From Eledone cirrhosa (lineage: Eukaryota): a stretch of 64,000 bases of DNA. The number at the start of each line of letters is the position of its first letter. The first letter of the stretch is position 1. Of the stretch, positions 7,141 through 30,730 are shown one piece after another. A program made the position numbers and the translations under genes. Location: NCBI GenBank assembly GCA_964016885.1, contig OZ024740.1:302684001-302748000 (forward strand), given 5' to 3'. A model generated the notes under the pieces. It saw only the letters and a list, made by a program, of their open reading frames with translations. It did not search any database and was not told the origin of the DNA.

Positions 7141-7655
7141 TTTAAGTTGAAATAAAATGAAAACAAAATTTCATTTGTCACTCTTAGTACGGCACTTACT
7201 TAAATGTAAGTATGTATGTATACGTACATACATATATGTATACAGACGTACAGTAGCATGCATATATATATATACATACAGGTACACATACATATATGCA
7301 CGTATCAGTTTAGCGGACGCTAATTATATGCCTGACCGACTTAACTCAGTCGATATGCAAATTAGGCTGCTCAGCCGTTAATTTTCATAAGGAAAGTATA
7401 TACTTTCGAACGTTCAACTAACTGGCAGAAGGGTATACGGTACTGATGATAGCTAACAAGCTTGAAACTAGTATATCGTTCCTGTGTCAGTGTTGAACAA
7501 AAAGGTGACGTGGTTGCCTTAACACCGCACGGCATAAATTCAGGCTGTTCAGTTTGTTTACAAACGAACAAAGCGGCGTTATAATAAGCTTCCGCTAAAC
7601 TGATACGTGCATATATGTATGTGTACCTGTATGTATATATATATATATATACATA
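7141..7655 (+). mobile_element. Fold-back insertion of a ~470-bp HHR non-coding element (family B2)
   Basis: Homologous to 15735-16483 and 30270-30730; inversion junction near 7320; ATGCAAAT at 7355-62; HHR at 7437-79. Confidence 0.8.
7437..7479 (+). ncRNA. Minimal type I HHR
   Basis: acggta CTGATGA t-agct-aaca-agct-t GAAA ctag TA tatcgt. Confidence 0.88.
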
Positions 7656-8618
7656 CATACTTACAATACATATATATATATATCAATATATATATATATA
7701 TCAATATATATCAATACATATATATATATATCAATACATATATATATATATATATCAATACATATATATATATATCAATACATATATATATATCAATACA
7801 TATATATATATATCAATACATATATATATATCAATACATATATATATATATATATATATATCAATATATATATATATCAATATATATATATATATATATA
7901 TATATATCAATATATATATATATATCAATATATATATATATATATCAATATAAATATATAAATATATATATATATATCAATATATATATATAAATATATA
8001 TATATATATCAATATATATATATATATCAATATATATATATATATATATCAATATATATATATAAATATATATATATATATATTGATATATATATATATA
8101 TATCAATATATATATATATATATATATATATATATCAATATATATATATATATATATATATATATATATATATATATATATATAAATATATATATATATA
8201 TATATATATATATATATATATATATATATATATATATATATCAATATATATATATATATATATATATCAATATATATATATATATATATATATCAATATA
8301 TATATATATATATATATATCAATATATATATATATATATATCAATATATATATATATATATATATATATATATATATATATATATATATATATATCAATA
8401 TATATATATATATATATATATATATATATATATATATATATATATATATATATATATATATCATTATATAGATTTTGAGTTTCTGTTGGCTGTATACCAA
8501 CACCTCAGTATGCAGGCTGGAGCACTCGACGAAGTGCGCAGGTTGGTTTGGTTACTCCGGAGTAGTGTAAAATAAAGTTAAATAAAAGTCAAATGATTAA
8601 AATTTAGCTTCGTTTATT

Positions 8619-8673
8619 ACTGCTATATATATTTCAGTGACAGCCATCTTTGACTGTGACCTCTTCAGGCAGT
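8619..8673 (-). ncRNA. Type I HHR
   Basis: Sense: actgc CTGAAGA g-gtcacagtc-aaagat-ggctgtcac-t GAAA tatata TA gcagt. Confidence 0.82.
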
Positions 8674-8917
8674 TTGAATTAGTATGGTATAGACAAGTAC
8701 ATATGTTATTTAGGTGTATGATATTGTCAATACTCTGATATGCCCAGTTCCTTGTTGGGTTGTTAATTCATCCAGTTCCCCAGTGAATTAACAACCCAAC
8801 AAGGAACTGGGCATATCAGAGTATTGACAATATCATACACCTAAATAACATATGTACTTGCCAAAATGGCGTAGGATAGAAGAAAGGAAAGGCACAGAAA
8901 CGAAGAAAGAAATCCCC

Positions 8918-8962
8918 AGTCACTGAAGAGGTCACAGAGTGTGTGACGAAAGAACTATGACT
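8918..8962 (+). ncRNA. Minimal type I HHR
   Basis: agtca CTGAAGA g-gtcaca-gagtg-tgtgac GAAA gaac TA tgact. Confidence 0.82.
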
Positions 8963-9412
8963 ATATATATATAAACAACTATCTGGTTGTGGAACCAACC
9001 AACCAACCAGAAATTTATAAATTTGTAAATTTATAAATATATATTAAATTAAATTGAAGTGAAAGCAACTGGTGCGTGTGTTTCTTATTGGCAACATGAC
9101 CCTCCCAAAGTATAACAATATATATATATTGATATATATATATATATATATATATATATATATATATATATATATATATATTGATATATATATATATATA
9201 TATATGTATATATATATATATATATATACATTGATATATATATATATTGATATATATATATATATATATATATATATATATATATATTTATATATATATA
9301 TATATATATTGATATATATATATATATATTGATATATATATATATTGATATATATATATATATATATATATATTGATATATATATATATATATATAGAGA
9401 GAGAGAGAGAGA

Positions 9413-26472: not shown

Positions 26473-28557
26473 ATATATTGATATATATATATATATATTG
26501 ATATATATATATATATTTATATATTGATATATATATATATTTATATATTGATATATATATATATATTTATATATTGATATATATATATATTTATATATTG
26601 ATATATATGTATATTTATATATTGATATATATATATATTTATATATTGATATATATGTATATTTATATATTGATCAATATATATATTTATATATTGATAT
26701 ATATATATATTTATATATTGATATATATATATATTTATATATTGATATATATGTATATTTATATATTGATATATATATATATTTATATATTGATATATAT
26801 GTATATTTATATATTGATATATATATATATTGATATATATATATATATTGTTATATATATATTGATATATATATATTTATATATATTGTTATATATATAT
26901 TTATATATATTGTTATATATATATTTATATATATTGTTATATATATATTTATATATAGTGTTATATATATATTTATATATAGTGTTATATATATATTTAT
27001 ATATAGTGTTATATATATATTTATATATAGTGTTATATATATATTTATATATATTGATATATATATATTTATATATATATTTATATATATATATTTATAT
27101 ATATATATATATTTATATATATATATATTGATATATATTTATATATATATATATATATATATATATTTATATATATATATATATATATATATTTATATAT
27201 ATATATATATATATATATTTATATATATATATATATATATATATATTTATATTGATATATATTTATATATATATATATATATATATATATTGATATATAT
27301 ATATATATATATATATATATATATATTGATATATATATATATATATATATATATATATATATATATATTGATATATATATATATATATATATATATATAT
27401 TGATATATATATATATATATATATATATATATATATATATATATTGATATATATATATATATATATATATATATATATATATATATATATATATATATAT
27501 ATATATTGATATATATATATTGATATATATATATATATATATATATTGATATATATATATATATATTGATATATATATATATATATTGATATATATATAT
27601 ATATTTATATATATATATTGATATATATATATATATTTATATATATATATATATATTTATATATATATATATATATTTATATATATATATATATATATAT
27701 ATATATATATATATATATATATATATATATTGATATATATATATATATATTGATATATATATATATATATTGATATATATATATATATATTTATATATAT
27801 ATATATATATTTATATATATATATATATATTTATATATTGATATATATATTTATATATTGATATATATATATATATATTGATATATATATATATATATTG
27901 ATATATATATATATATATTGATATATATATATATATATTTATATATATATATATATATTTATATATTGATATATATATATATATATTGATATATATATAT
28001 ATATATTTATATATATATATATATATATATATATATATATATATATATATATATATATATATATATATATATATTTATATATATATATATATATATATAT
28101 ATTTATATATATATATATATTTATATATATATATATATATATATATTTATATATATATATATATTTATATATATATATATATTTATATATATATATATAT
28201 TTATATATATATATATATTTATATATATATATATATATATATATATATATTTATATATATATATATATATATATATATATATTTATATATATATATATAT
28301 TTATATATATATATTTATATATATATATATATTTATATATATATATATTTATATATATATATATATTTATATATATATATATATATATATATATATATAT
28401 TTATATATATATATATATATATATATATATTTATATATATATATATATATATATATATATATATATTTATATATATATATATATATATATATATATATAT
28501 ATTTATATATATATATTTATATATATATATATATATATATATATATATATATATATA
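26473..28557. repeat. (AT)n array with TG/TT interruptions
   Basis: Direct reading. Confidence 0.95.
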
Positions 28558-28822
28558 TCAACTGATATGTTGATTTGAAACTGCACTATCAACAAGTGTT
28601 TTTTTAGCCTTCATATCATGTTCTCCTGTTTTATCTGATGAAAACACAAATATTATTGTTTGATGATGTTTGTTTTTGAAATGCGCATAATAAAATATAT
28701 TGAACTCCTTTAACCATCTTTTGATCTTATATTATGCATACTCCAGTCCCACAAACTGTAGAGTGCTTCTTATCCGATATCTGCATTGCTTTATTGTACT
28801 ACAATAAAACTCACCTCCTACA
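28558..28822 (+). mobile_element. Second family D copy with HHR at 28629-28697
   Basis: Homologous to 26215-26472. Confidence 0.82.
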
Positions 28823-29516
28823 TATATATATATATATATATATACATATATATATACATATATATATATATATTGATATATATATATATTGATATATATA
28901 TATATTGATATATATATATATATATATATATATATATATATATATATATATATATATATATATATACATATATATATACATATATATATATATTGATATA
29001 TATATATATATATATATACATATATATATATATATATATATACATATATACATATATATATATATTGATATATATATATATATATATATACATATATATA
29101 TATATTGATATATATATATATATATATATATATATATATATTGATATATATATATATATATATATATATATTGATATATATATATATATATATATATATA
29201 TATATATATATATATATATTGATATATATATATATATATATATATATATATATTGATATATATATATATATATTGATATATATATATATATATATATATA
29301 TATATATATATATTGATATATATATATATATATATATATATATATATTGATATATATATATATATATATATATATATATATTGATATATATATATATATA
29401 TATATATATTGATATATATATATATATTGATATATATATTGATATATATATATATATATATTGATATATATATATATATATATATATATATATATATATA
29501 TATATATATATATATA

Positions 29517-29890
29517 TTTCGTTTCTGAATTTGTTTAGCAAGATTCTTTATCTGAAATTTTGTTTTGAAACCGATATTGTTATACTTTGGGAGGGTCATG
29601 TTGCCAATAAGAAACACACGCACCAGTAGCTTTCACTTCAACTTATAATAAATTTATAAATTTAGGAATTTATAAATCTATAAATTTCTGGTTGGTTGGT
29701 TGGTTCCACAACCAGATAATTGTTTATATACTGTCAAAGTTCTTTTGTCACACATTCTGTGACCTCATCAGTGACTGGGGATTCTTTTCTTTGTTTTTGT
29801 GCCTCTCCTTTGTTCTGTCCTACGCCATTTTGTTTCTGTGTGTGTGTTGTGTGCTCAGTCTGCGCATGCGCCACATCCGAGTTTATATGA
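29517..29890 (-). mobile_element. PLE terminal fragment with mutated HHR (29731-29777)
   Basis: Reverse homolog of 8862-9120; CTGATGA ggtcaca..tgtgac AAAA. Confidence 0.72.
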
Positions 29891-29944
29891 TACATATATA
29901 TATATATATATATATATATATATATATATATATATATATATATA

Positions 29945-30730
29945 CAATATATCAACAAATGGAAACTATATTTATAATACAATATTTATTTCATTATATA
30001 TATTTCAAGGACACCAAAGCAAATTATGGTGCGCTTTCATCAGATAAAATATAATATAGATCAGTTTTATTAACAAATATTGACATACCCTTAAAGAATG
30101 CAACCATGTCGATTGGAAGCTCCCGGATAGTGGGGTTACTAATTTTATTATTGGTCTATTATGCAAATTAGTGTCGGAAAGGTTTAAATCCCTTACATTT
30201 AAATTAAGCCGTTGGAATAGGGAAAAAAGGAATAAGAAAGAACGAAAGAAAAACAAAAGAAAAGAAAGAGAAATAGAGATGAAATTTCGTTTCAATTTTT
30301 CCGTTTATCGTTTACGGTGCACCCGGCCGATTAACCCACTCGATATGCAAATTGGTTTACTTAGCCGTTAATATGCAAAAGGAAAGTATATACTTTCGGA
30401 GGTTCAACTATCTGGCAGGAAGGTATACGTTGCTAACGATAGCTAACAATCTTGAAACTAGTACAGCGTTCCTTTGTCAGTGTTGAACAAACGAGCAACG
30501 GTGGTTGCTAGACACTATGGCTTAATACGGGATGTTGTTTACAAACACACCGAGAATTATAATAAATGTTTGGTGAATCCATACGTACATATATGTGTGC
30601 ATGTATGTATATATATATACATACTACTGTACGTCTGTATACATATATGTATGTACGTATACATACTTATATTTAAGTAACAACCGTACTAAGAGTGGAA
30701 AATGAAATTTCGTTTCATTTTTTCCGCTTA
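29945..30730. mobile_element. Chimeric two-tailed insertion: family-2-like pLTR (-, HHR 29987-30051) joined to a family B2 unit (+, mutated HHR 30427-30469)
   Basis: The left arm resembles 20226-20380; the right arm matches 7330-7640 and 15740-16200 (reverse). Confidence 0.75.

Follow-up and report, generated by a model that had tools for sequence, protein, structure and literature searches.

Metazoan retrozymes without long terminal repeats (non-LTR retrozymes) are non-coding tandem units with one type I hammerhead ribozyme each, strong self-pairing and a habit of coexisting with Penelope-like elements, according to the accessible parts of two surveys (Cervera and de la Pena 2020, PMC7229834; Li et al., bioRxiv 10.64898/2026.07.22.740005). 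We found the same traits in B1 and B2, two diverged groups of hammerhead repeats in a 64,000-nucleotide stretch of Eledone cirrhosa DNA (contig OZ024740.1, positions 302,684,001 to 302,748,000; hereafter the window). Their unit, 423-469 nt long, exceeds the 170-400 nt given in PMC7229834 and falls within the 51-972 bp of the bioRxiv survey. Insertion into (TA)n targets and one common 3' end set B1 and B2 apart from metazoan retrozymes, and neither a promoter element nor a fixed priming site is described in the available sections of the two sources.

A promoter inside such a unit has a precedent in newt satellite 2, for which an internal Pol II (RNA polymerase II) promoter of the small nuclear RNA (snRNA) type is recorded in the accessible part of PMC2220036, citing Coats 1994. 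As far as the available sources go, this satellite is a hammerhead repeat now classed with the retrozymes and, like axolotl HHR_Amex1, it shares with B1/B2 the tandem unit and a single-pair helix III with a palindromic tetraloop. Its promoter is said to consist of an octamer plus a proximal sequence element (PSE). B1/B2 also carry an octamer, ATGCAAAT, but they differ by description in their invertebrate-type genome (30% GC, Hydra-clade helpers), their longer unit, the lack of a recognisable PSE and the position of the octamer inside a paired inverted repeat. The idea of an internal retrozyme promoter is thus not new in kind. Schistosoma Sm-alpha is likewise an invertebrate hammerhead repeat with a reported internal promoter, but that promoter is of the Pol III (RNA polymerase III) type, whereas B units have internal T4-T5 runs and the octamer. 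In the literature searched, which left most subscription papers outside, no octamer or snRNA-type promoter was reported for an invertebrate retrozyme, and the word 'promoter' was absent from the passages available of PMC6155905 and PMC2837043.

A third comparison concerns insertion. Hydra-clade Penelope-like elements (Craig et al. 2021, PMC8557442) are known from aquatic invertebrates and insert into (TA)n, as stated in section 11 and the supplement of that partly accessible source. Together with Poseidon_Ac (Frangieh et al. 2024, PMC11167929, likewise in part), they resemble the B units in (TA)n targets, 5' truncation, 5' inversion (as in B2a), partial tandems, hammerheads and a fixed internal start of reverse transcription. 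B units differ from them in encoding no protein and in having no extended DNA similarity to the autonomous elements of the window; ATGCAAATTAG had no match in the readable supplement of PMC8557442, where line breaks could hide some.

[quoted passage not shown] The window is animal-type DNA of 30% GC, rich in (TA)n arrays that host many short elements with hammerhead cores, and several of its open reading frame (ORF) pieces are Penelope-like, with a reverse transcriptase (RT) followed by an endonuclease. B1 is a head-to-tail tandem (period 469, 2.2 copies) that begins with a 5'-truncated part unit, continues with a full 469-nt unit and a third unit with an internal deletion, and closes with a 65-nt duplicated 3' end; its two copies are 99.6% identical. 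The terminal duplication (10869-11001), with a few TA units between its halves, looks like the terminal tail of Penelope-like insertions. No coding-like ORF of at least 120 aa lies inside the B units. The features are listed in Table 1.

Table 1. B1 and B2 copies and associated elements of the window.
Feature	Position	Strand	Remarks
B1 insertion in (TA)n	10878..12037	-	two hammerheads
Predicted B1 monomer RNA, candidate circle	11140..11608	-	469 nt, between two GUC cleavage sites
B1 type I hammerhead 1	11603..11645	-	helix III: single A-U pair under a palindromic CUAG loop
B1 type I hammerhead 2	11134..11176	-	
B1 hairpin B	11703..11742	-	5' arm with octamer 11732-11739; 3' arm a one-mismatch inverted copy
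B1 hairpin B, second copy	11234..11273	-	octamer 11263-11270
B1 hairpin A and fixed 3' junction, candidate start of reverse transcription	11310..11348	-	
B1 hairpin A and 3' junction, further copies	11779-11817, 10943-10981, 10878-10916	-	
B2a 3' unit end with hairpin A	7139..7328	-	inverted relative to the hammerhead piece
B2a inverted 5' piece	7327..7626	+	octamer 7355-7362, hairpin C, hammerhead 7437-7479
B2b, about 1.6 units	15734..16483	-	one hammerhead 16036-16078; octamer 16153-16160
B2c, about 1.1 units (423 nt each)	30275..30731	+	octamer 30345-30352; hammerhead 30427-30469, mutated core
B2 3'-end fragment	31826..31887	+	hairpin A only
Hydra-clade Penelope-like ORF	4652..6788	-	RT followed by a GIY-YIG type endonuclease, in two frames; candidate helper family
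Second Hydra-type Penelope-like ORF fragment	21336..22638	+	between inverted hammerhead-bearing repeats 20236-21123 and 23303-24166
Element C3	29957-30280		hammerhead at 30043 (-); abuts B2c head to head
12-mer TATGCAAATTAG and partner word in C3	30134..30176 (12-mer 30160-30171)	+	arms in swapped order

B1 and B2b are colinear homologues with 290 of 427 aligned columns identical (68%, or 59% with gaps counted), in agreement with the sequence-only reading, which had described B1 and B2 as related but strongly diverged. Several of its details needed amendment. The unit length that it took as shared is 469 in B1 and B2b but 423 in B2c; the copy that it placed at 7141 has B2 sequence but is no monomer, the minus-strand part being joined to the inverted plus-strand piece; its fragment near 31820 does match B2, but only as a terminal hairpin without octamer or hammerhead. 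The hairpin that it wrote as aacgaaa..tttc keeps a conserved 3' side, AATTTCGTTTC, but aacgaaa itself occurs only in B1, and B2 has aatgaaa.

The hammerhead core is intact in four of the five hammerhead-bearing copies. B2c carries CTAACGA instead of CTGATGA, so its ribozyme is probably dead; the B2a ribozyme ends in GUA, with predicted cleavage after 7473. Stems I and II show compensatory changes between copies, and the covariation of stem I noted earlier was borne out (A-U to G-C, G.U to U.G). An Rfam match (HH9) was obtained for B1 only, below the gathering score (E 0.0065). A single-pair helix III with a palindromic loop is the form of amphibian satellite hammerheads that work as dimers (PMC7229834, in the part available). 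When folded (one base off register), the B1 monomer reached -158.7 kcal/mol (z -9.6), as low as none of 100 shuffles, and the opposite strand reached -137; the hammerhead strand thus folds better.

Sequencing runs contain B1 as well. Part of it was present in 16 of the 22 runs listed (12 organism labels), only three of them with half or more of its words. In contigs from four runs labelled as four organisms the joint between unit end and unit start was found in all four, and one contig of 499 nt is a closed 469-nt B1 unit; such contigs fit tandem DNA or a circle alike. A stem I variant common to the four runs turns the G.U pair of the window into A-U, and a 6-nt deletion variant seen in two runs retains the octamer.

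All six terminal 3' ends in the window (two of B1, those of B2a, B2b and B2c, and that of the fragment) map to a single site with a scatter of about 5 nt. This site is 10-14 nt beyond hairpin A, at the point where TAT passes into (TA)n, and it is at the same base, 11310, that a contig of run X5 departs from the B1 unit into (TA)n. The 5' ends are variable, and that of B2a is inverted. Going round the circle from the fixed 3' end, the octamer follows after 37-40 nt and the cleavage site after 155-170 nt. With (TA)n targets, a fixed 3' end, 5' truncation and inversion, the B insertions match the signature of Penelope-like elements. Penelope-like RT nicks AT-rich DNA in vitro and starts inside its RNA at fixed sites (PMC11167929, accessible part). 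We infer that the fixed 3' end of the B units may likewise reflect internal priming, by a Hydra-clade Penelope-like helper.

A candidate for such a helper family is encoded at 4652..6788. Its RWR, DKT, YRDD and CxCx5C motifs match the description of the Hydra clade in the available part of PMC8557442, and a Hydra vulgaris homologue with 41% identity was the sole organism-named match among the 120 listed. Pfam gave no family for seven of the eight ORF pieces and one sub-threshold match. No viral locus encoded a close relative of the window's Penelope-like protein.

The octamer is present in all five hammerhead-bearing B copies, at each of the places given in the sequence-only reading (7355+, 30345+, 11263-11270-, 11732-11739-, 16153-16160-) and always on the hammerhead strand. 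The distance to the ribozyme, put at about 90-100 nt, is 88 nt (B2a, B2b and B2c) or 100 nt (B1) before the CUGA core. It was missed at first that the octamer forms the 5' arm of an RNA hairpin, hairpin B, and that the word common to B1 and B2 is longer: B1 has no longer exact stretch in common with B2a or with B2b than the 12-mer TATGCAAATTAG. This word occurs five times in the window, against 0.05 expected, and four of the five are B copies. It resembles the extended class II POU binding consensus, a likeness for which a text search gave no source and which we did not count.

Hairpin B is frozen. Between B1 and B2a all 11 positions are identical, the C.U mismatch included, whereas 9 of 17 pairs in stem I, stem II and hairpin C have changed, seven of them on both sides. 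Since the helices were chosen and paired by hand, the P values for hairpin B versus these three neighbouring stems are indicative only (Fisher, 0.0035 for B2a, 0.04 for B2b, 0.44 for the decayed B2c). The alignment of copies that had been suggested as a check on the octamer left its eight bases invariant across four copies; four changes hit the partner arm of hairpin B, and a single one its 5' arm, away from the octamer (P=0.19). At 60-68% identity a given 8-mer would persist in only 2-5% of cases. Judged from these alignments, the sequence of hairpin B, and not its pairing alone, seems to be constrained.

We consider it possible, and propose tentatively, that the octamer hairpin is a DNA-level POU promoter element. 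As an Oct site of snRNA distal elements the octamer had been recognised, ATTTGCAT being so described, for Oct1, in the available part of PMC5493778. The 12-mer TATGCAAATTAG would most likely act in DNA, as a POU-factor site that aids Pol II transcription from within the unit. A transcript over two tandem units would then self-cleave at its two type I hammerheads, probably as a dimer via the palindromic helix III, and give a structured monomer or circle of about 470 nt. A Hydra-clade Penelope-like protein would nick (TA)n, prime at the one fixed internal site past hairpin A and copy round the unit. With the fixed 3' end about 40 nt before the octamer, the octamer would be copied last in each full lap and so land ahead of the next hammerhead. 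The partner arm of hairpin B would stay fixed because the RNA must still fold against an octamer arm that cannot change. These steps, from cleavage and circularisation to the helper and each part of the promoter role, we infer. Only insertions with two hammerheads could yield a new monomer, which is one of the four hammerhead-bearing insertions (B1).

The earlier suggestion that the unit carries its own promoter, restored upstream after each insertion, therefore agrees with the geometry of the circle; the expected companions of the octamer did not appear. Between octamer and hammerhead in the three copies scanned, human PSE, STAF, fly PSEA and TATA were not above shuffles (consensus sources PMC5493778 and PMC1761439, each in part). 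The human PSE consensus was matched with 4 mismatches in 12, a score that 257-372 of 500 shuffles also attained; PSEs evolve fast and are lineage-specific, so a host PSE could escape such a scan. Rfam found no spliceosomal snRNA gene within the window. B2 has TATATAC 46 nt upstream of the core and B1 has CATATAA at -59, this TATA-like word being an arm of the covarying hairpin C and conserved neither in place nor in sequence. A word like the 3' box at +111 in B2b (one mismatch) was rejected, with two mismatches in B2c, three in B1 and a position in a hairpin.

Several results weigh against a promoter role. The fly PSEA core was reached by 50-310 of 500 shuffles (50 in the best case), and the best STAF/SPH site beside the octamer had 6-7 of 18 mismatches. 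From octamer to ribozyme the distance in B1 is 12 nt greater than in B2, and the octamer is itself one arm of an RNA hairpin. The 8-mer on its own shows no enrichment in the window, with 8 occurrences against 5.96 expected and at least 8 in 21 of 100 shuffles, and a 12-nt identical run somewhere arose in 31-75% of alignments simulated at 60-68% identity. The evidence for conservation rests on only two independent lineages: with the B1 copies 99.6% identical, the five octamers are two lineages and not five tests. A table of variants in the four runs, heavily filtered and of little power, had 12 sites, none in 11200-11348 or in the octamer, but chance alone would leave the octamer untouched by 12 sites in about 7 cases of 10. 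Hairpin A, which has no octamer, is likewise frozen over an 11-nt word. Thirteen of the 14 other hammerhead sites lack a perfect octamer in the 260 nt upstream of them, among them family A with its 6.3 identical tandem copies. The 12-mer of C3, 125 nt upstream of the hammerhead in opposite orientation, speaks for a DNA site (about 6e-4 by composition), but C3 abuts B2c and could have acquired it from a B-type unit.

The conserved hairpin can instead be read as RNA, an alternative that we regard as rather unlikely: hairpin B, together with hairpin A, would be bound in a sequence-specific manner, either by the helper Penelope-like protein or by a protein of the host, and the octamer would be a coincidence. 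Hairpin B lies 40-75 nt downstream of the fixed start of reverse transcription on the circle, hairpin A stands frozen on its other side, and an anole Penelope-like RT requires RNA 3' of its start sites (PMC11167929, accessible part). The whole region folds, and its basal stem covaries (GAGUGAG/CUCACUC in B2b, GAGUGG/CCCACUC in B2c). Such a site would account for identity of both arms and of the C.U mismatch in B1 and B2a, and the sole change in the 5' arm (A-U to G.U, in B2c) is compatible with pairing only on the hammerhead strand. Nevertheless, most of the changes (four versus one) hit the partner arm, where they break pairs, and the duplex of C3 would form on the strand opposite its hammerhead; a DNA site could behave as the 12-mer of C3 does, in opposite orientation with its arms swapped. 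Moreover, hairpin B was not found in the 3' ends of the window's autonomous elements, apart from a short likeness (CCCACTA-CTAATTTTC) in C1/C2.

It is unlikely that hairpin B has no special function, being an ordinary stem of the circle that is identical by shared ancestry, with an octamer that is a chance 8-mer of an AT-rich genome and transcription by read-through or by signals that we failed to recognise. The background frequency of the 8-mer in the window, the ease with which a 12-nt run arises at B1/B2 identity, the absence of the octamer from most hammerhead families of the window and the failure of the scans to find a core promoter would all be expected on such an account. The low survival of a given 8-mer, the divergence of the neighbouring stems, the recurrence of the 12-mer beside an unrelated hammerhead (C3) and the newt precedent, which raises the prior, speak against it. 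Finally, a U6/H1-like type 3 promoter of Pol III, with octamer, PSE and TATATA at about -46, is highly improbable: the human H1 RNA gene has a compact octamer-PSE-TATA layout and the TATATAC of B2 would suit it, but that word lies in an arm of hairpin C with compensatory changes, is displaced in B1 and does not exceed shuffles, and the B1 monomer has one T5 run and two T4 runs, which normally stop Pol III, here before the second hammerhead.

B1/B2 are not established as members of the snRNA-type promoters; they would work like newt satellite 2 if the POU-promoter reading is true. A wider proposition, which we consider doubtful, is that invertebrate retrozymes independently acquired the solution of newt satellite 2: a POU-driven, snRNA-like internal promoter, formed by an inverted pair of POU sites in DNA that is also an RNA hairpin and placed directly behind the fixed start of reverse transcription, so that every full lap would rebuild a promoter-ribozyme cassette, a module movable to other hammerhead elements (C3). 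If true, such a dual-coded promoter would explain the strong transcription of animal retrozymes in all tissues; their circular RNAs are abundant in every tissue examined (PMC7229834, available part). The B family supplies a candidate that is precise and open to mutation (a 12-nt word within a 40-nt hairpin), together with a mapped priming site, in one 470-nt unit, which lets both retrozyme transcription and recognition by a helper RT be tested. Should TATGCAAATTAG prove to be RNA structure or chance, B1/B2 would be a new but otherwise ordinary family of retrozymes whose 3' end is well defined.

We also scanned metagenome, viral and genome loci for relatives by pattern, with no octamer required. 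One metagenome locus was found, like B2 only over the hammerhead and lacking the octamer; on this GC-richer contig (L001, 601-644) the hammerhead-like motif comes with GAAACTAGT and GTTCC words as in B2. The strict pattern returned no viral and no genome loci. Looser patterns returned two genome and 115 viral loci, none homologous to a B unit and none of the 117 with the octamer at -130 to -60. An octamer-plus-core pattern, used in a separate scan, returned 115 viral loci, which were set aside as chance, 25 having a later GAAA and none aligning to the B cores.

The window holds further hammerhead families. Family A (12942-15622) consists of a 310-bp hammerhead unit whose 6.3 minus-strand copies stand head to head with 2.3 plus-strand copies, and it has the helix III palindrome ACGCGU and a U.U at the base of stem II. 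Family D is present in two copies that are 88% identical (9402-10018, minus; 30878-31478, plus), with a type I hammerhead in which stem II bears a long insertion and helix III is a palindrome, CUAAUUAG. All five CCCACTA words of the window lie upstream of hammerheads, twice in B1 and once each in C1, C2 and C3 (23736-23752 plus; 20650-20666, 11709-11724 and 30128-30134 minus), and in C1/C2 and B1 the word is followed by CTAATTTTC. Judging by the sequence, CCCACTA may be a motif that these elements share or a vestige of common descent.

At its 3' end the main Hydra-type element shows a fold resembling a hammerhead, with the core CAGAAGA or CGGAAGA and not CUGANGA in three of three copies (3661-3760 and 32160-32260, minus; 63090-63190, plus), adjoining 138-bp tandem repeats. 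In its 3' untranslated region (UTR; 4560-4585 and 61330-61355) a reverse octamer is directly followed by a consensus splice donor, AG/GTAAGT; Penelope-like elements carry an intron overlapping the internal promoter at a place that matches this octamer and donor. We did not count these 3' UTR octamers (4574 and 61343, one Penelope-like family), as a one-mismatch 12-mer is expected 0.6 times, within chance. Long, near-perfect inverted repeats lie within Penelope-derived pieces at 26172-26259, 21277-21412, 8721-8833 and 49109-49188. They are likely fold-back products of insertion, and they account for the sub-threshold microRNA matches in Rfam.

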